Part shown: in pieces, positions 27,401 to 55,974 of the stretch
Numbering within the stretch: position 1 is the stretch's first letter
Layout: each line of letters starts with the position of its first letter
From: a virus
Taxonomy: Duplodnaviria; Caudoviricetes
Reading direction: 5' to 3' (one strand)
DNA: 64,000 bases
IMG/VR virus record: IMGVR_UViG_3300021400_000046
Span: 85,632 to 149,631 of that record
Translations under genes and position numbers: made by a program
Notes under the pieces: model-generated
What the model was told of the DNA's origin: nothing
The model's database searches: none
What the model saw: only the letters and a program-made list of their open reading frames with translations

Positions 27401-27810
27401 CCCCCGGATTTAGCGCTGTTTTCATGTTCAGTGTTGTTAATCCATTCAAACAAACGATTTAATGCAATTTCAAAAGCACCAATTCCAGAGAAATAACTGC
27501 CGACTTTCAAATCATTAAATAAGTACGGCATTGCAACATAAAGGTTTTTTAATATGTAAAATAGAACATCGGTCACTATTGAATTACCGGCCTGTTTATA
27601 TAATTGCGAATCACTAACAACCTCATTTAGTGCAGCTTCAATACTCTGTTTTAGATCGTCATTTGGAAACATTGTGATTATTCGCTTTGCGGTTTCTCTA
27701 CTTCCAGTTTTCGCCGCATAAAAATCTTCATCAGTAAAACCCATCAATCGCCAGCATTCTTTTGGTGTTAATTTTCTAATTCTGTAACCATGCTCAGAAT
27801 TTTCAATCAC
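27391..27810 (-). CDS. C5-cytosine methyltransferase, C-terminal piece (motifs IX, X, then I; permuted)
   Basis: RIRKLTPKECWRLMGF (IX), QLYKQAGNSI (X), SYFSGIGAFE (I). Confidence 0.9.
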   Translation of the reverse strand: MIENSEHGYRIRKLTPKECWRLMGFTDEDFYAAKTGSRETAKRIITMFPNDDLKQSIEAALNEVVSDSQLYKQAGNSIVTDVLFYILKNLYVAMPYLFNDLKVGSYFSGIGAFEIALNRLFEWINNTEHENSAKSGGEM

Positions 27811-29028
27811 TCGTTTATCACCCCCGCATTGATAGTTCGGATTGTTCCTACTACATCGTCATTAAACAATCTCAAACCTTCATCGGTTCTTTGTTCGCAC
27901 ACAATATATTCTTTATCCATAACTACAACCATAGGTTGAAGATTACCCCCCTGACAAGTGTGCAAGGCAGGAGCAATACCGTCAACACTATAAACCCTTC
28001 CTTGATTTGGATTATCTCTTGTTTTTGTCGGGCAAACATTCCCAATCCATATAATCTCACTCATTATTTTTATCCATAGGCTCAATAACAAATATCATTT
28101 GGTTAGATGCTGTTAGTGTTGGACATATTTCTCCCCCGACTGAACACGGCCACGCCGAGTCTTAGACGTTGGATAGCTGAAATCTGCGATACCTGGAACA
28201 GCACACTCAATATAACCTGTTTTTGTAGCCTGTCTTATTCTTATTTTCATAATTTTCAACGATCATCACATGGTTTTTTATACCTAAACCAGCACATAGA
28301 GTTGGTGATAACCCCCGGATTCGTAGACAATATTTGATTGATGTTTACCCGTCCCTTTTTCTATGTGGCCGATTACTTTGATCTTCTTTTCTTTCATACG
28401 TTTTCACAACAATTTTTGGTGGGTCTTTGTAACATGAAGATGGGATAGTTGACATTAACCCATTTACTGAATAAATCCAACCTTGTTGTCCCCCGAACCT
28501 CGATGGATCAGCCGGTCAATCTCATTCTTTTTGTTCATCATTTGTAACCACCATAACTAAAATCTTTGGAGGGTCTTTATAGTGTGTTGATTTGATAGTA
28601 CACATTGAACACCCCCGGAAGTATCATACACTTCTTGATTTTGATGTATCTTACCGGAGTCTGGTATCAATCTCCCAAGAACTTTTGTTTCCAATATTAT
28701 TTTACCCTCTCAATTACTAATTGCCTTCTATGTGTTCGCAAGAAGTATTCAAATGTAATTCCCTTGTGATAGTTCGCATCAATACAATATGAATACTTGT
28801 CACACAATCCATACTTGAAATCTTTGTGTTCTTCGGAATCCCCCGGACGGAGAGATTATTTCTCTTTACGTCTGGCATTTAATAACTCCATTCATCGGTT
28901 GATTACCGAACACTTTGTAATCTCTTGCGAGAAGCGTGTTTGCTATATCTATTTCTCTATCAAACTTAGTGCATTGCTCTTAGAATAGCCCTGTTTTTAT
29001 ACCTGAACCATATCCCATTGGTGTCTGT
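27807..29028 (-). other. array of C5-MTase target-recognition (TRD)-like mini-modules, six split at CGGGGG
   Basis: Starts at 28878, 28694, 28541, 28397, 28250, 28064; one added G gives SYCIDANYHKG, CTIKSTHYKDPPK, STIPSSCYKDPPK, VYESGGLSPTLCAG, RRGRVQSGGEICPTL, GTIRTINAGGDKRVIE. Confidence 0.8.
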
Positions 29029-29769
29029 CTAAGCTCGATCTCCCACCTGCCTAATGGCGTTAGAGTTCTTCTTATCTAACTTGCCGGAGTCAATCAGTTC
29101 ATCAATAAGCTGTTTTGCCTTATCGGTATTTATGTAGTATTTTTCATCAACTTCTGTTTCCAAAACATCTTTTAAGCATTTGTCACTCTCAAAGCCTTCG
29201 GGGAATGAGAACAGGCCATTATCAAACTCTTTAAGAATAATAATCAAGAATACACGTTCTCTATTTTGCGGGACACCAAAATCCTTTGAATTTAGCACTT
29301 TGTAGTATGTGTTATAACCGTACTCATGTAGCTCGTCAATGAACATCTGGAATGTATCTTTGAATTTCTTACCTACAATGTTTTTGACGTTTTCATAGAT
29401 CCCCCACTTAGGTTTATTTGCTCGAATAACTCTAAGCCATTCAACAAGCAACGAGCTTCTTGACTTATCAAGATTCGTGCTTCCACATTTCGGACATCTA
29501 TTACGGACAGAATAATGAACTGTCAAAGGATTATATGTATGACCACAATCATTACACTTCCATCTGCTGCCCACTTGGTTTCCTGCCACACTGAAATCTT
29601 GGCATGGACTTCCACCACAGATCATATTAAATGGCTGCAAAGCGTGTTCATCAACAAGTGTAATGTCTCCAAGGTTTTTTGATGGATCAGCACCATGCAC
29701 AGCACAATAACTTTTAACTGCGAACTTATCAAACTCACAGAAGTTTACCAATTCATACGACTTATTCAA
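29029..29769 (-). CDS. C5-cytosine methyltransferase, N-terminal piece (motifs II-VIII, no motif I) with zinc-finger insert
   Basis: FCEFD, GDIT, GGSPCQDFS, YENV, VPQNRERVF; CNDC..CPKC insert; TTG start after GAGAGG. Confidence 0.92.
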   Translation of the reverse strand: MNKSYELVNFCEFDKFAVKSYCAVHGADPSKNLGDITLVDEHALQPFNMICGGSPCQDFSVAGNQVGSRWKCNDCGHTYNPLTVHYSVRNRCPKCGSTNLDKSRSSLLVEWLRVIRANKPKWGIYENVKNIVGKKFKDTFQMFIDELHEYGYNTYYKVLNSKDFGVPQNRERVFLIIILKEFDNGLFSFPEGFESDKCLKDVLETEVDEKYYINTDKAKQLIDELIDSGKLDKKNSNAIRQVGDRA

Positions 29770-37804: not shown

Positions 37805-37880
37805 TGGTCTGAGCGACTGGACTTGAACCAGCGGCCTCTGCATCCCAAATGCAGCGTTCTACCAACTGAACTACGCCCAG
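37805..37880 (-). tRNA. tRNA-Pro(UGG)
   Basis: Cloverleaf, CTGCA-tt-TGG-ga-TGCAG, CCA encoded. Confidence 0.95.
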
Positions 37881-38389
37881 ATATAATTGTTTAATACTTT
37901 ATGTAATTCATAATCACTCGCAATATGTATTCTTTTCTTTTGATTTGTTTTTGGGTATGTATATCGAAGTCTAAAAACGAATCCTGTTGCATCAGAAATT
38001 GGGACAAGATAACCTTTTCCATTAAACCATGTATAAAAGAAATCAACATCACTACTTTTATACTTATATCTTATCATCCGTTTTGTATTTACCGTTATGC
38101 TACTTGTAGCAATTTCAAATGCTTCGTTTTCATATCTCGTATCTTTGCACCATGTACTATGTTTGCATTGTATTTTAATAATCTTATTACCCATATCAAC
38201 TGCAATATCGTATTTACATGAATCATCAACTGGCGTTAAACACATATACCCTAATTCTGTAAAATCTTGTATACAATGCAGTTCTGTTAGTAATCCTTTT
38301 TGTTGTGTTGTACCTTCTAATTCCTTCACTTTTCCACCTATATAACAAATAGAATGGCAAACTGCTCGGCACTCTCTAATCAAATACAT
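37871..38389 (-). mobile_element. PD-(D/E)XK homing endonuclease (group I intron-associated type), free-standing in the tRNA array
   Basis: KGLLTE..GY..TP.DDSCKYDIAVD..KIQCK..YKSSDVDFF; true start probably GTG near 38330; stop lies inside tRNA-Pro. Confidence 0.8.
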
Positions 38390-38447
38390 GAGAAGTTTTT
38401 GTCAGCTTCTTTCGTCTTTCTTCCATACCGCCAAGAAAGAACCAAAC

Positions 38448-38523
38448 TGGTTGCGGGAGTAGGATTTGAACCTACGACCTTCGGCTTATGAGGCCGACAA
38501 GCTAACCGCTGCTCCATCCCGCA
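38448..38523 (-). tRNA. tRNA-Met(CAU), initiator-like
   Basis: TGCGGGATGGAGCAG..TCGGC-ct-CAT-aa-GCCGA..CCA. Confidence 0.93.
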
Positions 38524-38527
38524 ATAT

Positions 38528-38797
38528 TTACTCTCCAACAACAATAAACAACCGTTTCTTGCCCCACTTGATATTCAAACAGTCTGGCTTGTCTAACGTT
38601 ATAACCAAGTCTTTTCTGTTTCTGCGAACTTCACCAGTTGATGCAACAAGTCCAGCTTCTTTCATTACTGCCGGTAGAAAACGGGTTTCTGTGAACAGTG
38701 TAACCGGCTTTTCATTCTGTTCCCAATCTTCATTGTCAAAAGCAAGCACTTGTCGTATGTCAAATAACGGTTTGCCAATCACTACATTTTGAAACAT
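38528..38797 (-). CDS. small protein resembling the TyrRS C-terminal S4-like domain
   Basis: MKEAGLVASTGEVRR..IKWGKKRLFIV. Confidence 0.55.
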   Translation of the reverse strand: MFQNVVIGKPLFDIRQVLAFDNEDWEQNEKPVTLFTETRFLPAVMKEAGLVASTGEVRRNRKDLVITLDKPDCLNIKWGKKRLFIVVGE

Positions 38798-39339
38798 ATC
38801 TCTCTCCTTAAAACAATACAGGCCAGCCGATCAGATTTGCACTACTCAACGCCGTAACACTATGTATGAGAAGTTGGTTAGCGTTGCCTCTCCGCATCCG
38901 TATATTTTTTTTATTAACCCTCATGCGCCTCTAACCGGCTGTACCCATATCGCCGCATTCTGCAAATATCTCTTTTACCAACCTATAAACCACCGACAGA
39001 CCATTTGCACAATCAAATGTTAAGTTTCGTTGCAAAATGCTTTTTGTTTAATTTTCGATGATATACATTCATTTAGTAGCTCCTAATTGTGTCACCCGAT
39101 CTAACGTGTCGGTAGAGCCATAACGTCACATAAGCACCTAATACGTTTTAGTACGGCCAGCAGATATATCATTTCACCGCTCGGCAGGGCTGAGTACCCT
39201 TGCTTTATGTAATACCCAATAGCGGCCATCAGCCATAGGAGCAGCCGCCACGAGTGCTTGCTAACGAGGACTTTACTGTGAGTGTTTTGTTGTAGTGGTT
39301 TTGCCCCGCCTATATTCGTAACATTGGGTATCAATTTTA

Positions 39340-39427
39340 TGGAGGAAGGTGTGGGATTTGAACCCACGGACGTTTTACCGCCACTGGTTTTCAAGACCAG
39401 CACCATAAACCACTCGGTCAACCTTCC
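39340..39427 (-). tRNA. tRNA-Ser(UGA)
   Basis: CTGGT-ct-TGA-aa-ACCAG, long variable arm, CCA. Confidence 0.95.
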
Positions 39428-39430
39428 GTA

Positions 39431-39524
39431 TGGTACTCCCATAGGGACTCGAACCCTAATTTCGCACTAATCTGGTGCTGGGCGGATCATAAGGCCGCTG
39501 GCTTACCAATTAACCGATGGGAGC
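39431..39524 (-). tRNA. tRNA with UAU (Ile) anticodon and long variable arm
   Basis: GCTCCCA/TGGGAGT acceptor, GCGGC-ct-TAT-ga-TCCGC, GCAC/GTGC variable stem, TTCGAGT T-loop, CCA. Confidence 0.8.
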
Positions 39525-39529
39525 ATATC

Positions 39530-39614
39530 TGGTGTCGATGATCGGACTTGAACCGATATACCAAATGGCAGCAGATTTTGAGTCTACCGTGTCTGCCAAT
39601 TCCACCACATCGAC
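39530..39614 (-). tRNA. tRNA-Leu(CAA)
   Basis: GTAGA-ct-CAA-aa-TCTGC, CCA. Confidence 0.93.
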
Positions 39615-39687
39615 ATTTAGATGGCGGTTGTAACGTAATAACTGAGCCGCCGCAGTTATAAAAGGAGAATTTTATGAACAAGTACCG

Positions 39688-39764
39688 TGGTGACGCTACC
39701 GGGGATCGAACCCGGAAGTTCCACCTTGAAAGGGTGGTGACTTTACCAATTCGTCTATAGCGCC
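39688..39764 (-). tRNA. tRNA-Glu(UUC)
   Basis: CCACC-ct-TTC-aa-GGTGG, CCA. Confidence 0.95.
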
Positions 39765-39831
39765 ATATATAACTTGTGTTCCACAGGAAATAATGATTAT
39801 CGTGGCAGCTCTGTTATTTCCTCACAAGTTA

Positions 39832-39917
39832 TGGTGCCGCTGGCGGGACTCGAACCCGCACGGCTCGAAGCCGAGGGATTTTAAGTCCCTTGTGTCTACC
39901 GATTCCACCACAGCGGC
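39832..39917 (-). tRNA. tRNA-Leu(UAA)
   Basis: AGGGA-ct-TAA-aa-TCCCT, CCA. Confidence 0.95.
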
Positions 39918-39919
39918 AT

Positions 39920-40228
39920 TTATTCATTCAGCTTCTTACGAATTTCATATAGGAAATCAAGAATAGAGAAACTTTCGTCACCTTTTTCAACTCTATTAAT
40001 TGCAATTCCTACTTCTTTTTCAATTTCATAAAGAATATTATCAGCGTGTCCTTGCGCTTCAATAGTAATATCTTCAATTAATTGATCGAAAAAATCTGCG
40101 CTATCCTTCCCAAGCCTATCTTCGATTACTCGCCGGAAGTCATATTGTGGATTGATGATATACTCACGCGATCCATCTTCAAAATAAATAGTTGTCATTG
40201 TGCTGCGCTCCATGTTTTGTATATTCAC
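39920..40228 (-). CDS. hypothetical protein
   Basis: ORF directly upstream of tRNA-Leu. Confidence 0.55.
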   Translation of the reverse strand: MNIQNMERSTMTTIYFEDGSREYIINPQYDFRRVIEDRLGKDSADFFDQLIEDITIEAQGHADNILYEIEKEVGIAINRVEKGDESFSILDFLYEIRKKLNE

Positions 40229-40369
40229 AAAGACCTTTTACAAAATAACTTTGTGATCTGCTATGCAGTTTCAACCGAACGAAAAGAAAGGAGGGATAAT
40301 GAAATGGAGGTTTATCACATAAGCAACAACAGAACGGATGATAGTGTTCGGTTAGGTTTTGGTATGTAG

Positions 40370-40558
40370 TTAAGTTTTCTTTGAGGTTCCGAAAAAACCT
40401 TCAATATTGCGTGGGCTGGATGTACAGAAATCTTTAATATCTCGCTTCAATTCAGCTCCGCACTTATCACAGAAATGCCCGTTTGCCGTGTATTCAGAGG
40501 CCGGAATTGATATGGTCTTTTGTTTACCGCATTCAGGGCAGATAAATTGATAATTCAT
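40370..40558 (-). CDS. FmdB-like zinc-ribbon protein
   Basis: YQFICPECG..CDKCG. Confidence 0.7.
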   Translation of the reverse strand: MNYQFICPECGKQKTISIPASEYTANGHFCDKCGAELKRDIKDFCTSSPRNIEGFFGTSKKT

Positions 40559-40860
40559 TTGTTCCTCTTGCGTTTGTACTTTTCATTACTGTTTCTTAGG
40601 CTGTTTGATTACTTCATCTTACACGCAGATTGTACCATATAAACCACAGTTTGTCAAGGTAGTTTTCACAACATATTCTAATCTTTTAAGAAATCGTCTA
40701 TATCTTGTTCTGTAGTAGTTCCAATATGTTTCTCCCCCCGACTCATAGGCATCAAGCCGTTCAAGAGCTTTGTGCAACTCATAGAAAAAACTTTTGCTTG
40801 TTGGATTACCTTCAGAACTCGCAATCCTGGTTTCAATAATGCCAATTAGAGTTTTAGTTG

Positions 40861-42201
40861 TCATTGATAGTTCTCCTTAATGATACTGTCAATTTGATCT
40901 GCAATATTTACGAAAGATTGTTCTGTAAATCCTTTTGTAGTCATGGCTGCGGTTCCAATACGAATACCACTCGCCTCAGTTGGCTTACGTTTTTCTCCTG
41001 GTACACAATTCTTGTTTAGTGTAATACCATATTCATCAAGCAAATCCTGCACCATTGCACCAGTAACATTCGGTAGCGTTTTAGAGAGATCAATTAAGAA
41101 TAAATGATTATCAGTGCCGCCAGTTACAACATGATAACCAAGCCTGATAAATTCATTACACATTGCTTTGCAATTCTTTACGACTTGATGGATATATTTC
41201 TTGTATTCTTCTGTACACGCTTCTTCTGCTGCAACAGCTTTACCAGCAATAATGTTTTGCAATGCGCCGCCTTGAATACCAGGGAATACGGCACTATCAA
41301 TCTTCTTAGCCAACTCTGGCTTACAGAAAATCATACCTCCTCGTGGGCCTCGTAAAGTCTTATGAGTAGTGGTCGTGATAATATCTGCAATGCCAAATGG
41401 GGAAGGGTGATCTTCGGCAGCTATTAGGCCAGCAATGTGCGCCATATCAACCATAAAATATGGGTTATAATCTTCTGGTTCTACATATACATTGTAAACT
41501 CCTGCATTTTTCGCTTCATAGAAGTCTCGCGTAATTCTCCCACGAGCATTATCAATGATCTGTCTGATACGCTGAAAATCAATAACTCTGGAATAAGCAG
41601 ATGCACCGGCAAGAACCAGTTTCGGCTTATAACGCAAAATCTTTTCTTCAATATCCGCGTAATCAATAAACCCGTTCTGATCTACTCCATAGAAAACCAT
41701 CTTATAAGTTTTGCCTGAAAAGTTCACAGGAGAACCGTGCGTTAAATGTCCACCGTTTTCAAGGCTCATGGCAAGAATTGTGTCACCAGGTTTCAAAACT
41801 GCCATATAAGCCGCCATGTTCGCGTTAGAGCCACTGTGCGGCTGCACATTCACATGATAATCAGTGTTGAATACTTCGCGCCAATTGTTGCAACAGTATT
41901 CTTCAAGCTCGTCGATAATCTGGCATCCACCATAATATCGGCCTTTGTTGCCGGTAGTTCTAACTGCTGGGTAGCCTTCAGAATACTTGTTCATCATGCA
42001 AGAACCAACTGCTTGCAGTACGTTATTACTTACAAAATTCTCACTTGCAATCAGTTCAATAACACTTTCTTGTCTATGGTATTCAGCGTTTACCAACTGC
42101 AATGCGTAGCTGATCGGCTTATGTCTATTTCTTGCACTCATAAGTTTATTATAAATATCCTCTGCTTCTTCACTTGCAAATTTCTGGTTGCTTCTTTTCA
42201 T
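40861..42201 (-). CDS. glyA: serine hydroxymethyltransferase
   Basis: IELIASEN, NKYSEGYP, RYYGG, NVQPHSGS, GGHLTHG, TTTTHKTLRGPRGG, GGTDNH, SGIRIGT. Confidence 0.97.
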   Translation of the reverse strand: MKRSNQKFASEEAEDIYNKLMSARNRHKPISYALQLVNAEYHRQESVIELIASENFVSNNVLQAVGSCMMNKYSEGYPAVRTTGNKGRYYGGCQIIDELEEYCCNNWREVFNTDYHVNVQPHSGSNANMAAYMAVLKPGDTILAMSLENGGHLTHGSPVNFSGKTYKMVFYGVDQNGFIDYADIEEKILRYKPKLVLAGASAYSRVIDFQRIRQIIDNARGRITRDFYEAKNAGVYNVYVEPEDYNPYFMVDMAHIAGLIAAEDHPSPFGIADIITTTTHKTLRGPRGGMIFCKPELAKKIDSAVFPGIQGGALQNIIAGKAVAAEEACTEEYKKYIHQVVKNCKAMCNEFIRLGYHVVTGGTDNHLFLIDLSKTLPNVTGAMVQDLLDEYGITLNKNCVPGEKRKPTEASGIRIGTAAMTTKGFTEQSFVNIADQIDSIIKENYQ

Positions 42202-42307
42202 CTTGATCCTCGCTATCTGTTGTTACACAATCTGTACACGATGTTGCAATATCACAACAATCACAGTTATAATCACATTCAACTTCATTATTTACATTGT
42301 AAACCAT
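42170..42307 (-). CDS. 45-aa Cys-rich acidic microprotein overlapping the glyA start
   Basis: GGAGG RBS; MVYNVNNEVECDYNCDCCDIATSCTDC..ICK*. Confidence 0.5.
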   Translation of the reverse strand: MVYNVNNEVECDYNCDCCDIATSCTDCVTTDSEDQDEKKQPEICK

Positions 42308-42330
42308 TGCAACCTCCAAAGTGTTTTATT

Positions 42331-42406
42331 TGGTGCGCCCGACAAGAATCGAACTTGCGACCCACAGATTAAAAGTCTGCTGCTCTACCGACTGAGCTAC
42401 GGGCGC
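42331..42406 (-). tRNA. tRNA-Lys(UUU)
   Basis: GCAGA-ct-TTT-aa-TCTGT, CCA. Confidence 0.95.
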
Positions 42407-42470
42407 ATATAAGCCAGAGTCCAGATAAAAGAATTTTACAATATATAAGTGGTCTTTACGAACTTGGCTT

Positions 42471-42546
42471 TGGCAGAAGTGGGAAGATTTGAACTCGCCA
42501 TCTCACAGTTTTGGAGACTGTTGTTTTACCGTTAAACTACACTCCT
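42471..42546 (-). tRNA. tRNA-Trp(CCA)
   Basis: ACAGT-ct-CCA-aa-ACTGT, CCA. Confidence 0.9.
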
Positions 42547-42710
42547 ATGTGCGGCTTTTCCCTACGATTGGAGGATAAACCGTAACCCGTTTGCAAACTG
42601 GAAGGATTTATGCTTTCGTCAAAGTCCTTGCCTTACTGTGCCGTTGTTAGACCAAGTTTTAATTTCCAAAAAGGACGGAGTTCTGATAACAACACGATAA
42701 TCTCCGCTGC

Positions 42711-42785
42711 TGGCAGCGCAGGTTGGGATCGAACCAACGATGTAGGAGTCAAAGTCCTATGCCTTTACCGCTTGGCGACTGCGCT
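42711..42785 (-). tRNA. tRNA-Gln(UUG)
   Basis: TAGGA-ct-TTG-ac-TCCTA, CCA. Confidence 0.93.
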
Positions 42786-43010
42786 ATATTTGTGCCGCAG
42801 ATTTCATCCGTCAATAGAAACTCATAGATGCGTCCACCTATTATGCAGCACTTAATATCCAAGATCGGCTCTACAACACTAACGGGTTACTTGGTTCCCG
42901 TGGAATTACCAACTTCCAAAAGGTTCCACATCTTATTATGCGACATATTGGGATCACAGCCGCATCACACATATAAAGTCAAAGTAGAGAAGTCACAATA
43001 TATGCGCGAT

Positions 43011-43085
43011 TGGAGCGGGTGACGAGGCTCGAACTCGCACGGCCTGATCGGAGGTCAGGGATGCTACCAATTACATCACACCCGC
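43011..43085 (-). tRNA. tRNA-Gly(UCC) with C33
   Basis: CCTGA-cc-TCC-ga-TCAGG, U73, CCA. Confidence 0.88.
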
Positions 43086-43088
43086 GAA

Positions 43089-43173
43089 TGGTGCTGGCGA
43101 CAAGACTTGAACTTGCACGGTTTTCACCACGGGAACCTAAATCCAGCGTGTCTGCCAATTCCACCACGCCAGC
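43089..43173 (-). tRNA. tRNA-Leu(UAG)
   Basis: CTGGA-tt-TAG-gt-TCCCG, long variable arm, CCA. Confidence 0.92.
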
Positions 43174-48515: not shown

Positions 48516-48830
48516 TCATACCTCCTTCCAACCGTTTTTCTGGATAATTGCTCTCATGTTCGCCACTCCAACAGGATTCATACTGTGAATGTGGATTGGG
48601 TAACTAATTTCATATTCTTCAAGCCAATCAAGCAACTTGATATAGTCACCGCCATCTACTGCATAGTCTCCTGCATCATGGTCAATATCAATCAGTTCTA
48701 TCGGCTCAAATTTCTTATGGTTCCGATCTATATTTCTGCTTCTTGTAATGCAATACTTCGCTTCATTTACGCTCCTGCACCAAACATACCCGTCTGGTGC
48801 AGGGCGCACATCATCAATCCATAGTCTCAT
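48516..48830 (-). CDS. cyclic-phosphate-processing receiver-domain protein
   Basis: RLWIDDVRPAP, IDIDHDAG, IHIHSMNPVG. Confidence 0.8.
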   Translation of the reverse strand: MRLWIDDVRPAPDGYVWCRSVNEAKYCITRSRNIDRNHKKFEPIELIDIDHDAGDYAVDGGDYIKLLDWLEEYEISYPIHIHSMNPVGVANMRAIIQKNGWKEV

Positions 48831-49777
48831 TTTGCAAGTTCCTCAATCATGCTCATAATGTTATTGATCGCATCAACATGAGCCATAGGATCAGTGTTGT
48901 CGGCGTTATCTGCGCCAGCCTTATAAGCCGCTGCGATAATCGAGCGAAGATCATTTGCGTCCAGGCTCACAACTGGCTTTTCAGAAACGTCCTCATAAAC
49001 CTTGTCGCCGGTCACATAATCAGTGAAGAACGTACCAAAATCATCATAATAAGCATCAATCTTCTTTTTCGTCAGGCCAATATAATGCTTAGTAGTCTTG
49101 GTGTCGCTATGGTTATAGATCGTCTGCAACAGTTCCATGCTGTCATAATCGCCAGGATGGAGCATACGGGACATCATACCAAAAGTCTTTCTCGGAGAAT
49201 GAGTGCCGATGTTATACTCAATGCCGATCTCAGCCGCAGCTTTCTTTAAGCCCTTGCGATACCCGTCAGCCGTGATAACTCTACCCTTGAAGTTGCCGCT
49301 GGTCTGTACAAACATATAATCCTTATAGCCATTGGCTGCGGGATTAACGCCTGTGCGCTTGATATAGAGGTTGATCGCATCACGGCAAGCAGAGTTGATA
49401 CGTGGATTTGCCAGCTTATCTGTCTTGTCCTCGACAATCTCCATAAGGTCGGTGCGGAGCTGGCCGGTGGAAGGGTTGAAAACGTGTTCCCACGTCAGTT
49501 CCAGCGTATCACCAATGCGCCGCGCCATGTTGCAGGAGAACACGAAGATTAGGTAGTGCTGCCACATTTCGTTCTGCTCGAAGTAGGCGATCAGTTTCTT
49601 CATGTCCTCGATCTGGATTGGATAGACCTCAGACTTCTTGCCGCGCTGCTTGTTGCACTTGACATTCTTCGGTGTACCGTCTTTCTTCATCTTCGGAAGC
49701 TCAGAAACGATAACCTGACCAGGGAACAGAGGGGAAGTGATCTGAATGATATTGTTAGTAGCTGTTGCAGTTTTCAT
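48827..49777 (-). CDS. tyrosine recombinase/integrase
   Basis: RRIGDTL, KTDK, GTHSPRKTF, YNHS..TKHYIG (R-K-HxxR-H-Y complete). Confidence 0.9.
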   Translation of the reverse strand: MKTATATNNIIQITSPLFPGQVIVSELPKMKKDGTPKNVKCNKQRGKKSEVYPIQIEDMKKLIAYFEQNEMWQHYLIFVFSCNMARRIGDTLELTWEHVFNPSTGQLRTDLMEIVEDKTDKLANPRINSACRDAINLYIKRTGVNPAANGYKDYMFVQTSGNFKGRVITADGYRKGLKKAAAEIGIEYNIGTHSPRKTFGMMSRMLHPGDYDSMELLQTIYNHSDTKTTKHYIGLTKKKIDAYYDDFGTFFTDYVTGDKVYEDVSEKPVVSLDANDLRSIIAAAYKAGADNADNTDPMAHVDAINNIMSMIEELAK

Positions 49778-53476: not shown

Positions 53477-54945
53477 CTAATTTTTTGAAAAAAGTCTGCC
53501 GCAGATAGGGCAATTGTTAATCTGGATCGTATCAAGTAGGTCTATAACATCTGGCTGCGCGGCTAAAAACGTTCTTGCACGTAGCAATCCATGACAATTT
53601 ACAGCGATCTCAACACATGAAAATTGCGCCGTCTTATTCAGCGGAACAAAATCATTACTACCATTGTCACAAATAACGCACTTACTCATTCTTATTTACA
53701 CACCACGCTCTACGCTCGTCAGAAGGCAGTTCCTTCGGCGGCATTTCGTCACCGTGCATTTCACATAACCCAAAATCATCTGCAATATCATCAAGGCATT
53801 GCCCTAATGCCGTAGCAAATCGGCATTCAATTAGTTCTTTCCAACAATAATTACCCATTGCCACCTTAACTATCTCCGATGCAATCATCATAAATCAGTT
53901 TTGAGATTTTTGAAATTGTTTCAAATGACAGTTTACTTCTATAAAAAGAATTATCATGGAAATACATATAAATGTCTTGATATTGTGATCCTGCGATCTT
54001 GTACTTCTTATATTCTTCTTCCGTTTCAAACAAAAGATAACCATAGTTATAATCGTTTACACATTCGCCTGTTTCATTGTCAAATTTTTCAGACGAATAG
54101 TTACCTGTTTTAACATAGAAATACTTGTTCCCAATTTTTTCAACTACACCAGTTTTAATTGGATATTTACTATAGTTTCCAGTACCTACAAGGATCAATT
54201 CTTGTCCGACATGAATATGCTTGATTGTTCTGCAAGATTTCAAACTGATCTCCGTTTTCATTTTATCTACCTTCAACCCCATCGTCAAATTCGTTTATTG
54301 CACAAATAATTTCTTGGAGTAAATCGCGTGTTTCGATAATTGCTCCATCCTCATATAACACTGCTGCCTTTTTCAGATCAGCAATAATCAATTCGTCTTT
54401 TAATTCGCCACGCTTATAATACTTTGTTTCCATGATGTTCACTCCCAAAATATATTAAAAATTATTCATTTATCTTCTAAATACTTAACAAATTTATTGC
54501 ACAACAAACAATATAATTGGGTTTTCTTTCGATTTTTCGTAACATTTACAGGTCTTATACTATTACTTTTATTTTGGCTTAGAATTAAATAACCAGACGT
54601 TTGTTCTGAACCATCATAAGAATATCCTTTTGTTATAACAATCATCTTTTTAGTATATAAACCAAGTACACTACCACAATGGGGACAACATCTAATAGAA
54701 TCTTTTTGTGGCAAATTTGTATATTTGTAAATCAAATTTTTAACATATCTTGATAATTCTTCAAGAGATTCATTTCTACCGCCATCTGGATAATCTGGAC
54801 TTGCGTATACCATAATTGTTTTCAAATCATTATATTCATTTTCTGTAATTTGCCCTTTAATTTTTTCTAAACGGCTACACGCTTTCTGATAGTTCGCATA
54901 ATAAAATGCTTCTTGAAGCAATCTTTCTAATTGAAAACAAATCAT
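53477..54945 (-). other. small hypothetical ORFs 53477-53689, 53682-53891, 53866-54288, 54263-54448, 54466-54945
   Basis: Overlapping or abutting ORFs. Confidence 0.55.
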
Positions 54946-55118
54946 CGTTAATTTCCATCACTTTTTATTTATTAAAATCATATCGCTCTGGCGATACAGG
55001 CGAAGCGCCTGGGCTTTTGTGTAACCGTAGTATTGTTTTACTCCGTAGGCTCCATAAACAACCCAAGCGCCGCGCTCGTTTCTCTCAGTGAAATAGATGG
55101 TATTTTGATTGATTAACC

Positions 55119-55439
55119 TCATTCCGGCTTATATTCGTAATCCAGATCACCGGCTGCGTACTTCGCATAATCAACTCGGATCAGCTTTTTGCCGCCGACA
55201 TTTGCGGCAGCTCCGAAGGCCATTCTGCCAACTACACCGACAAAGTTGATCGTGTTGTCGCCATTTACTGCCATGATCTCGGAATACTCCCGACTTGTGG
55301 GCTTCTGCCCGTCGCAATAGGTGAAACCTTCGGCCTCTGCCTGTTCAAGAAACGCCTTACCCGTCTGATTGTCCTTCAGATACACATATACACGGTCATT
55401 CTCAAAAGGAAACTCTGTCAAATTCTTAATTGTTCTCAT
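55119..55439 (-). CDS. hypothetical protein under SAM-I riboswitch control
   Basis: 106-aa ORF with AAAGG RBS directly downstream of the riboswitch terminator. Confidence 0.75.
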   Translation of the reverse strand: MRTIKNLTEFPFENDRVYVYLKDNQTGKAFLEQAEAEGFTYCDGQKPTSREYSEIMAVNGDNTINFVGVVGRMAFGAAANVGGKKLIRVDYAKYAAGDLDYEYKPE

Positions 55440-55487
55440 ACTGCTTTCAAAACCTTTCTAATAGTTATTTCTATCAGACTGTATGAA

Positions 55488-55516
55488 AGAAAAAATCCCA
55501 TCGTCACCGATAGGAT
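55488..55516 (-). terminator. riboswitch expression-platform terminator
   Basis: ATCCTATCG-GTGA-CGATGGGAT followed by a U tract. Confidence 0.85.
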
Positions 55517-55521
55517 CAATG

Positions 55522-55604
55522 CCTATCGGTCAAGCATTACCACCTTGCCATCTGGTAGGTTGGTGTACGGTCAACGGGCTTGTCCCTCACGCACTCTTAA
55601 TAGG
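55522..55604 (-). ncRNA. SAM-I (S-box) riboswitch aptamer, P4-less variant
   Basis: P1 CCTATT/GATAGG, AAGAG, P2 GTGCG/CGTAC with GA kink-turn and GGG/CCC, P3 CC-AA-CCT/AGG-T-GG, pseudoknot CAAGC/GCTTG. Confidence 0.85.
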
Positions 55605-55611
55605 TGTCTAT

Positions 55612-55652
55612 ATTATAACACATCATGTATTATTTGTCAATGTAGTTTTCAC
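55612..55652 (-). promoter_or_regulatory. extended -10 sigma-A promoter driving the riboswitch
   Basis: TTGACA(55640-55635)-17-TATAAT(55617-55612), TG extension, TGTGAAAACTAC upstream box. Confidence 0.85.
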
Positions 55653-55668: not shown

Positions 55669-55974
55669 TTACTCGCGCAGTAGTTCATAAATATCAACAT
55701 CAAGTGCCGCCGCGATTGCACACACTTTCAGAAACGGAGCTTTCACATTGCTGCGGCCTCGGTTGATCCAGGCGTAAACACTATCTCTCTTGCTTCCTGT
55801 AATTTCTACCAGCTTGTCAAGCCTTGTTGAATAGGTTACACAATCAGGAAATTTTATAGCAAGATAATTCTCTATGTTCTCGGCAAGTTTTACCTTATCT
55901 ATAGTTTCCCATTTCGCATTTAGTTCAAGTATTTGGGCGGCAAGATTGATCTCCATTCCTGTGTCCCTCCTCAT
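55669..55974 (-). CDS. XRE-like HTH protein
   Basis: LVEITGSKRDSVYAW..P..VCAIAAALDVDIYELL. Confidence 0.7.
   Translation of the reverse strand: MRRDTGMEINLAAQILELNAKWETIDKVKLAENIENYLAIKFPDCVTYSTRLDKLVEITGSKRDSVYAWINRGRSNVKAPFLKVCAIAAALDVDIYELLRE

Follow-up and report, generated by a model that had tools for sequence, protein, structure and literature searches.

A probable P4-less SAM-I riboswitch on a large phage genome and its small target protein, a candidate inhibitor of the phage SAM lyase

We analysed a 64,000-nucleotide (nt) stretch, hereafter the window, which is the final 64 kb of the genome of a gut or rumen phage, complete at 149,631 bp and bearing direct terminal repeats (IMG/VR record IMGVR_UViG_3300021400_000046, positions 85,632 to 149,631). 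Its minus strand carries a leader that is, in all likelihood, a genuine S-adenosylmethionine (SAM)-I riboswitch of the OFF type, built without the P4 helix and placed ahead of an open reading frame (ORF) of 106 amino acids (aa). The early operon of the same phage encodes a 120-aa SAM-lyase-like protein, and a structural model of the complex places the 106-aa protein on the active site of this lyase. Our best overall explanation, held with as much doubt as confidence, is that the SAM-I OFF switch and a lyase-binding, likely inhibitory protein together form a feedback brake on SAM depletion. The parts of the cassette are listed below in window positions, all on the minus strand.

55612–55640 (−): sigma-70-type promoter, TTGACA, 17-nt spacer with TG, TATAAT; 12/12 consensus positions and an extended −10 TG
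55522–55604 (−): predicted P4-less SAM-I aptamer, 83 nt, from the RF00162 match and covariation
55599–55604 with 55522–55527 (−): P1, CCUAUU with GAUAGG
55565–55594 (−): P2 with kink-turn
55539–55564 (−): P3
55579–55582 (−): L2 half of the pseudoknot, CAAG; its J3/4 partner is CUUG at 55531–55534
55506–55530 (−): antiterminator hairpin, ACCGAUAGG / CCUAUCGGU, from the RF00162 alignment, folding energy and relatives
55485–55517 (−): intrinsic terminator from a terminator scan, 10-bp stem, GUGA (GNRA) tetraloop, U6CU3 tail
55440–55484 (−): post-terminator leader, 45 nt, from the minimum-energy fold
55119–55439 (−): 106-aa ORF whose homologs form a conserved, unnamed family of ~100-aa proteins; SAM-lyase-binding protein according to the complex model
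54958–55122 (−): 54-aa ORF, overlapping the 106-aa ORF by ATGA

The original prediction, made from the sequence of the window, had described a consensus promoter followed by an 83-nt aptamer with P1, a kink-turn P2, P3 and an L2-J3 pseudoknot, and all of these elements were recovered. The promoter is present with 12/12 matches at 55640–55612 (−), and equivalent promoters lie at equal distance in relatives of the window leader. Infernal, run with the Rfam SAM-I model (RF00162), aligned 55495–55606 (−) to the full length of the model (1–108) at 59.6 bits, above the gathering score of 44.4, with an E-value of 2.8e-11 for a search of the whole window. The SAM-I/IV variant (RF01725) is marked by a P2 lacking the kink-turn and by a second pseudoknot that joins the P3 loop to a 3′ tail; a lower-scoring match of the clan yielded to RF00162, and the kink-turn signature is present in the window P2. 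The window aptamer holds the consensus J1/2 AAGAG, the P2 kink-turn signature GA...UGA and the P3 motif CAACC/GGUG. Relatives were gathered by a motif scan of viral contigs (17 loci) and by BLAST (two phage records). All 18 of the 18 judgeable relative loci passed the RF00162 cut-off, relatives of the window leader scoring 45–64 bits; there was no match in L015, a locus that has the motif at its very end. L-numbers denote such relative loci throughout.

Covariation among the relatives supported the same fold. Across 22 unique phage leaders, the structure made of P1 closed on X1 (the strand directly past J3/4), P2, P3, the pseudoknot and the terminator was paired in 97.4% of alignment cells, with 13 compensatory pairs, and 71 distinct leaders from bacterial contigs gave 95.1% and 21 compensatory pairs; when partners were slid as a control, only 32–47% of cells paired. 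By helix, compensatory pairs across the phage and bacterial-contig sets numbered 3–5 in P2, 3–4 in P3, 2 in the pseudoknot and 1–3 in P1. The pseudoknot, CAAG/CUUG in the window versus the consensus cuGG/CCug, was paired in 100% of cases in the 22 relatives and showed two compensatory pairs (CCGG/CCGG in L031). The covariation in P3 that had been claimed from the window alone, a C-G pair instead of G-C, proved to be real, with GC found in 48 relatives and CG in 19. The A-U and U-A pairs in P1 were invariant in 69/69 relatives, and the other SAM-contacting positions were likewise unvarying.

The absence of P4, also claimed originally, was borne out, but it was settled only by the relatives. On the window copy, Infernal placed all four helices over the 108 model positions, with ACCGAUAGG/CCUAUCGGU as P4 and, as the P1 3′ strand, the GAUGGG just ahead of the U-run, which is the 3′ strand of the terminator. 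For most relatives it deleted P4 and put the P1 3′ strand (CGAUGGGAU) 2–3 nt past J3/4; these leaders have a separate antiterminator and terminator further downstream, and their would-be P4 has a 17–25-nt loop. The strands P1 5′, X1, X′ and X2 form an a, a′, a, a′ series, so that simple complementarity cannot choose between the P4 and P4-less folds, but covariation can. Of the 71 leaders from bacterial contigs, 47 had a C at the outer 5′ position of P1, paired with an X1 G, and 15 had an A there, paired with an X1 U. Among the 21 leaders with an outer P1 A, the X1 partner was U in 15, and the equivalent X2 base was still G in 20, which results in A.G mismatches; the X1 U of these A-type leaders does not pair in the antiterminator. 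Overall, P1 pairing at the outer position reached 90% with X1 versus 61% with X2. Because the P1 5′ strand covaries with X1 and not with X2, P1 closes on X1, about 3 nt past J3/4, and, judged from this covariation, the P4 in the Infernal alignment of the window copy is an artefact of repeated strands. Natural P4-less SAM-I aptamers respond to SAM, and so do designed ones (PMC12714719); the P4-less form is thus a known natural variation within the family, and the window switch would not represent a new class.

Two further observations concern the same region. A sub-lineage of leaders (L026:1336–1500; also L116, L117 and L129) has an apparent true P4 (UCUGUAUC/GAUAUAGA) ahead of the P1 3′ strand; in place of a terminator it has just a hairpin in which the Shine-Dalgarno sequence is sequestered. 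This suggests that antiterminator and P4 can interconvert and that control in this sub-lineage is purely translational. In the window copy only, J3/4 (AAUGCUUG) is able to pair with UAGGCAUU, overlapping the P1 3′ strand (55518–55538 (−)). This local hairpin was found in minimum-energy folds and would rival the pseudoknot and the antiterminator; it is absent from L021, the single close relative compared by eye.

The aptamer leads into a pair of mutually exclusive hairpins, the terminator (GAUCCUAUCG-GUGA-CGAUGGGAUU with the U-run, 55517–55494 (−)) and the antiterminator, with folding energies of −14.0 and −13.3 kcal/mol, respectively. Within the antiterminator, GAUAGG also belongs to the 3′ strand of P1, and CCUAUCG also belongs to the 5′ strand of the terminator. 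These helices, proposed originally as exclusive alternatives sharing the P1 3′ strand, are real and conserved among relatives: the X1:X′ antiterminator pairing is kept at 90% across the 71 relatives, and the terminator is 96% paired, with 8/9 of its pairs altered on both sides, and was seen in 21/23 unique phage leaders (the L011 stem was placed by hand). The best fold of the nascent RNA is the closed three-way-junction aptamer at 86 nt and the antiterminator at 102 nt. Since the P1 3′ strand is at the same time the 5′ strand of the antiterminator, which excludes the terminator, the structure points to OFF logic, with the ORF made when SAM is low, in agreement with the original prediction.

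Beyond the terminator, most relatives carry a segment (consensus CUCUUUAUAGG) that complements the aptamer 5′ end (CCUAUAAAGAG). In 103 unique leaders, the duplex energy between the two had a mean z of −3.0, with 64% below −2, as compared to a mean z of +0.26 and 3% below −2 for a coding-stretch control. The Shine-Dalgarno sequence was paired in 71 of the 79 leaders having a clear one, in 51 of them with this same post-terminator segment, so that the CUCUUUGUAGG element has two alternative partners; L030 is a family member with strong complementarity. This pattern suggests that read-through transcripts may also be gated at translation, a free aptamer 5′ end releasing the ribosome site, as a feature of the family and not of the window copy. 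The window's own leader shows only weak complementarity of this kind (z −0.7), and another hairpin hides its Shine-Dalgarno sequence: in the minimum-energy fold, CUUUCA/UGAAAG together with UCUGAUAG/CUAUUAGA buries a weak Shine-Dalgarno-like GAAAGG/GAAAG.

The 106-aa ORF belongs to a family of 111 homolog clusters of ~100 aa, none of which has a Pfam domain. When the search was started from the protein, an RF00162 match above the cut-off lay just upstream in 11/11 viral loci, and the leader covariance model found the leader in 73/80 loci of bacterial genomes and 72/80 of metagenomes. Five of the leaderless loci have too little upstream DNA, and about ten are truly without a leader. The overall linkage comes to ~156/166 judgeable loci (~94%), counted over viral, genome and metagenome collections that were not de-duplicated against each other. 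By these counts, the link between leader and gene is not accidental: homologs of the ORF nearly always carry the S-box, which speaks against a switch captured by chance. Wherever a host is named, it belongs to the Clostridia of gut or rumen (Ruminococcus, Acutalibacteraceae, Oscillospiraceae and Lachnospiraceae). No neighbour gene is conserved beyond the closest relatives and the flanks differ widely, so that the promoter, the S-box and the ORF behave together like a self-contained cassette.

In other phage contigs, a P4-less S-box of the same type also stands ahead of four unrelated small orphan genes (L002:2496–2940, L007:8359–8946, L011:66–558 and L020:755–1533), for which no informative family was found apart from one weak MORN-repeat match. 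On one Clostridia contig, two leader copies lie within 1.5 kb of each other (L083:1280–1421 and 2762–2893) and may be tandem S-box cassettes.

Structure prediction and a fold search, proposed with the original prediction, gave a confident model of the 106-aa protein (predicted local distance difference test score (pLDDT) of 92.8) and no match to a solved fold. In Pfam, the protein had only a sub-threshold match to a chitobiase C-terminal domain, and in PHROGs it had none. The family profile found nothing below E 0.4 among PDB sequences, and for the model against the PDB, Foldseek found nothing below E 2.6 and a wide VIA-align search gave a best Z of 3.0. Against the Atlas, the model matched only Pfam-less clusters with template-modelling (TM) scores of 0.84–0.88, which are probably the same family, and DUF1642 with a TM score of 0.60. 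A language-model search returned a RegA-type phage translational-regulator cluster as a look-alike (0.85), which should be taken as a lead only.

The SAM-lyase-like protein is encoded on the minus strand at G000:C1:11278–11640 (G000:C1 denotes coordinates on the full phage genome), in the early operon and ~20 kb from the cassette across the genome ends. The profile of its family matches the phage SAM lyase Svi3-3 (PDB 6ZM9) with an E-value of 9e-6, and many of its homologs carry PF23780. The reaction of such lyases is the cleavage of SAM to 5′-methylthioadenosine and homoserine lactone. Foldseek placed 6ZM9 and 6ZNB on top for the model of the protein (E 1.2e-5, TM 0.63). In the alignment to Svi3-3, Y62, E73 and Q103-E104-S105 correspond to Y58, E69 and Q104-E105-S106, and across 32 homologs Y62, E73, N102, Q103 and E104 do not vary, while G60 hardly varies. 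In Svi3-3, Gly56, Tyr58, Glu69 and Gln104-Ser106 take part in SAM binding at an active site between two subunits of the trimer (PMC7877911). Given the Svi3-3-like profile, fold and set of active-site residues, it is very probable that the phage degrades SAM at an early stage of infection. Directly downstream of the lyase gene in the early operon, we noted a Hammerhead_1-like element (G000:C1:11192–11270 (−), locus L033) scoring 29.6 bits against a 34-bit cut-off (E 1.7e-6).

The phage is also a SAM user. The original prediction had based a heavy dependence on SAM on four methyltransferases and a radical SAM enzyme. In our searches three methyltransferases (two N6/N4 and one C5) scored above cut-offs and a radical-SAM-like ORF fell just below; the lyase had not been connected with the riboswitch in the original prediction. 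The C5 DNA methyltransferase match (G000:C1:113331–115394 (−), window ~27700–29763) comes in three pieces within one 801-aa frame with an in-frame TAG, and the gene may be broken, phase-variable or recoded.

Canonical S-box genes raise SAM, and we therefore asked by complex modelling whether the 106-aa protein acts on the lyase. Models built from three lyase copies and the 106-aa protein scored 0.85, 0.84 and 0.82, as compared to 0.00 for the best of 3 controls. A mark of 0.84 was reached by 58/80 solved complexes and by 2/110 mismatched pairs, counts that hold only roughly here, since our own alignments and the lyase trimer differ from the calibration. The runs shared at least 80% of contacts, with a partner pLDDT of at least 92. 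The predicted interface covers residues 18–27, 60–66, 71, 73, 75 and 102–107 of a first lyase subunit, which form the active-site cleft with a second one, and residues 10, 12, 51–53, 81–83 and 117–120 of that second subunit; on the side of the 106-aa protein it comprises the most conserved loop, 65–83, and residues 41–54. We know of no comparable solved complex, which makes it unlikely that the model reproduced a known structure. From these models we lean towards the 106-aa protein binding the phage lyase, and that it binds and also inhibits the enzyme is a proposal we regard with slightly more doubt than belief. The predicted binding lends support to an unrecognised SAM-related function, one of the options named in the original prediction.

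The two genes are often found together. A lyase, detected by family profile or PF23780, was present in 9 of the 10 records tested (G000–G009), the exception G009 being a 50-kb provirus, and it lay 10–20 kb from the cassette on the same strand in the nine records with compared positions. From the lyase side, 13/23 lyase-bearing viral records carry the 106-aa ORF, always with the leader. In lyase-bearing phages, identity to the window 106-aa protein was 0.58 both at the interface and in the rest of the protein; in lyase-less ones it was 0.27 at the interface and 0.40 elsewhere. This contrast is weakly informative because the sample is small and confounded by ancestry.

Several points weigh against a brake made of a SAM-I OFF switch and a lyase-binding protein, in addition to the rough calibration of the complex score. 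The lyase as a single sequence stays below the PF23780 threshold (21.2 vs 28 bits), and the 106-aa ORF has a weak Shine-Dalgarno sequence at an unusual spacing. The ORF is missing from four lyase phages with essentially complete genomes, and in six small phages or proviruses the cassette occurs without a lyase, so the pairing is frequent and not obligate. Co-occurrence comes largely from one lineage of 65–170-kb phages and may therefore reflect ancestry, adding little independent weight. On the RNA side, the nearest-neighbour minimum-energy structure contains the terminator even without ligand, which implies that the ON state, in which transcription reads through, must depend on kinetics, as it commonly does in switches of this kind. 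Judged on the window copy by itself, the fold without P4 and the one with four helices are isoenergetic (−32.4 vs −32.3 kcal/mol). This equality, together with the Infernal alignment of all 108 model positions and the sub-lineage L026, L116 and L117 with its seemingly true P4 and no terminator, speaks for a four-way junction as in the Rfam alignment, in which SAM would either prevent the terminator hairpin, giving an ON switch, or P1 itself would be the terminator stem. We consider such a junction very improbable: covariation ties the P1 5′ strand to the strand directly past J3/4 and not to the later copy, the would-be P4 of most relatives has a long loop and is deleted by Infernal itself, the terminator stem runs 3–5 covarying pairs past what P1 needs, and nothing would be left to switch once P4 had preformed. 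To an aptamer that has drifted to another ligand, such as S-adenosylhomocysteine or a SAM breakdown product like 5′-methylthioadenosine, we give hardly any weight. The missing P4 and the non-metabolic target gene would fit this option, raised in the original prediction as a ligand-variant switch, and a product of the lyase would be an attractive signal; it is disfavoured because the positions that read SAM (P1 A-U/U-A, J1/2 AAGAG and P3 CAACC/GGUG) never vary in 69 relatives, and P4-less SAM-I aptamers, natural and designed, do respond to SAM (PMC12714719).

The remaining alternatives concern the protein. That the 106-aa protein is unrelated to the lyase, and that a mobile cassette reads low SAM as a signal of starvation or of a SAM-degrading phage, is an unlikely explanation that still deserves attention; the function switched on could be, for example, superinfection exclusion, defence, lysogeny or translation control. 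The cassette is autonomous with varying neighbours, occurs without a lyase in small phages, proviruses and many Clostridia genomes, and shares its S-box type with the unrelated orphan genes of L002, L007, L011 and L020, all of which would suit such a role, as would, as a lead only, the RegA-cluster look-alike. A protein unrelated to the lyase would however leave unexplained why the complex model passes where its controls score 0.00 and lands on the lyase active site through the most conserved loop of the ORF; canonical S-box targets raise SAM, as a lyase inhibitor would, and cassette and lyase occur together in 13 viral records. The binding prediction is silent on the sign of the effect, so that the 106-aa protein might instead activate, stabilise or retarget the lyase in a positive feedback toward full SAM depletion. 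We find this improbable, given that the contacts cover the substrate-binding residues Y62, E73, S75 and Q103–S105 and should block the entry of SAM, and that at least three SAM-dependent methyltransferases of the phage would starve.

In the feedback brake that we favour, a strong constitutive promoter would transcribe the SAM-I leader with its three-way-junction aptamer. With SAM plentiful, P1 (CCUAUU:GAUAGG) would close on transcription and tie up the 5′ half of the antiterminator, and the next segment would form the terminator with CGAUGGGAU, stopping RNA polymerase at the U-run ahead of the ORF. With SAM scarce, P1 would not be held, GAUAGG and CCUAUCGG would form the antiterminator, and the polymerase would read on into the 106-aa and 54-aa ORFs. 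The phage lyase expressed from the early operon would lower SAM and so open the riboswitch; the 106-aa protein would then cover the lyase active site between two subunits and inhibit it, SAM would stop falling and recover, and SAM would thus be left for the phage's own methyltransferases. Where the cassette occurs without a lyase, as in smaller phages and in bacterial genomes (some of the latter marked as proviruses), the protein could dampen the activity of a SAM lyase brought in by an infecting phage. More tentatively still, and with doubt prevailing, we propose that the family as a whole is a SAM-lyase inhibitor under S-box control, serving as a SAM-stat in large lytic phages and, in lysogens and bacteria, as an anti-counter-defence, induced by the SAM crash that an infecting SAMase phage brings about, that keeps SAM-dependent restriction or bacteriophage exclusion (BREX) systems working.

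Around the cassette, the 54-aa ORF is probably co-transcribed and translationally coupled with the 106-aa ORF; its homologs in the equivalent place are confined to 11 related loci, and it has no family match in Pfam or PHROGs. Directly upstream of the riboswitch promoter lies a gene for a 101-aa helix-turn-helix protein (55669–55974 (−)) with a weak match to the transcriptional-regulator family phrog_8, a near-consensus promoter of its own (56017–55989) and homologs that keep the position in 21 related loci. Near the cassette (48516–49777 (−) and 53866–54288 (−)), we also found a tyrosine integrase (PF00589), a cREC_REC receiver domain and a phage ProQ-C-like protein; the integrase would be unexpected in a 150-kb direct-terminal-repeat phage if the phage were strictly lytic. 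Twelve tRNA genes are clustered at 37808–43173, all on the minus strand.

As compared to classical S-box leaders (RF00162; B. subtilis yitJ and metI, T. tengcongensis metF), the phage switch has the same P1-P2(kink-turn)-P3 core, L2-J3/4 pseudoknot and SAM-contacting nucleotides. It also shares with the Firmicutes S-box a relay of strands with double roles (the 3′ strand of P1 also forms the 5′ side of the antiterminator, whose 3′ side in turn forms the 5′ side of the terminator), the predicted OFF logic, and a host range in Clostridia. It differs in apparently dispensing with P4, in running from P1 to the U-run in ~112 nt, in residing on phages and mobile cassettes, and in controlling an unnamed ~100-aa protein and not genes for methionine, cysteine or SAM; most relatives further add the post-terminator element that pairs with the aptamer 5′ end or the Shine-Dalgarno region. 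An Actinomycetota group in the RF00162 alignment holds natural P4-less SAM-I aptamers with a three-way junction that are reported to be functional, with affinity dropping as P4 shortens (PMC12714719). The window switch comes from a different phylum and gene context, and, unlike in these aptamers, its strand after J3/4 serves as both P1 3′ strand and antiterminator, which allows the antiterminator to be taken for P4 when a covariance model is aligned.

On the protein side, the 120-aa protein resembles Svi3-3 (PDB 6ZM9) in predicted fold, in trimer-interface active-site residues and in early expression context, and with it the phage would manipulate host SAM as T3 does with its SAMase gp0.3. To our knowledge, the only known protein partner of a SAM lyase is host MetK, in the T3 SAMase-MetK complex. 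Within the literature collection that we searched, queries on phage SAM riboswitches, on SAMase together with riboswitches and on protein inhibitors of SAM lyases returned nothing relevant, and we found no report of a phage protein binding a lyase active site or of a riboswitch reading the effect of a lyase.

The 2017 survey by McCown et al. came to the conclusion that riboswitches are seldom used by phages, and no SAM class was among those it listed; the phage riboswitches reported before are c-di-GMP-I in C. difficile prophages and glutamine aptamers in cyanophages (PMC5473149). The switch described here is likewise a metabolite riboswitch on a phage genome, but it belongs to SAM-I, occurs in dozens of phage and provirus records and has a dedicated target gene. 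The SAM-I leader thus appears, against the rarity conclusion of that survey, as a recurrent mobile module of phages and proviruses. Even without the link to the lyase, the ~94% linkage gives a first functional handle on a large orphan family, whose protein would be made when SAM is low. The proposed connection between the riboswitch-controlled protein and the phage SAM lyase is new in this analysis. If the inhibition holds true, the 106-aa protein would be the first known protein inhibitor of the SAM-lyase family of anti-restriction enzymes, and the virus would close a feedback loop with a host-type sensor on a metabolite that it itself destroys, plausibly adding a new layer to the contest over SAM between restriction and BREX systems and phage SAMases.

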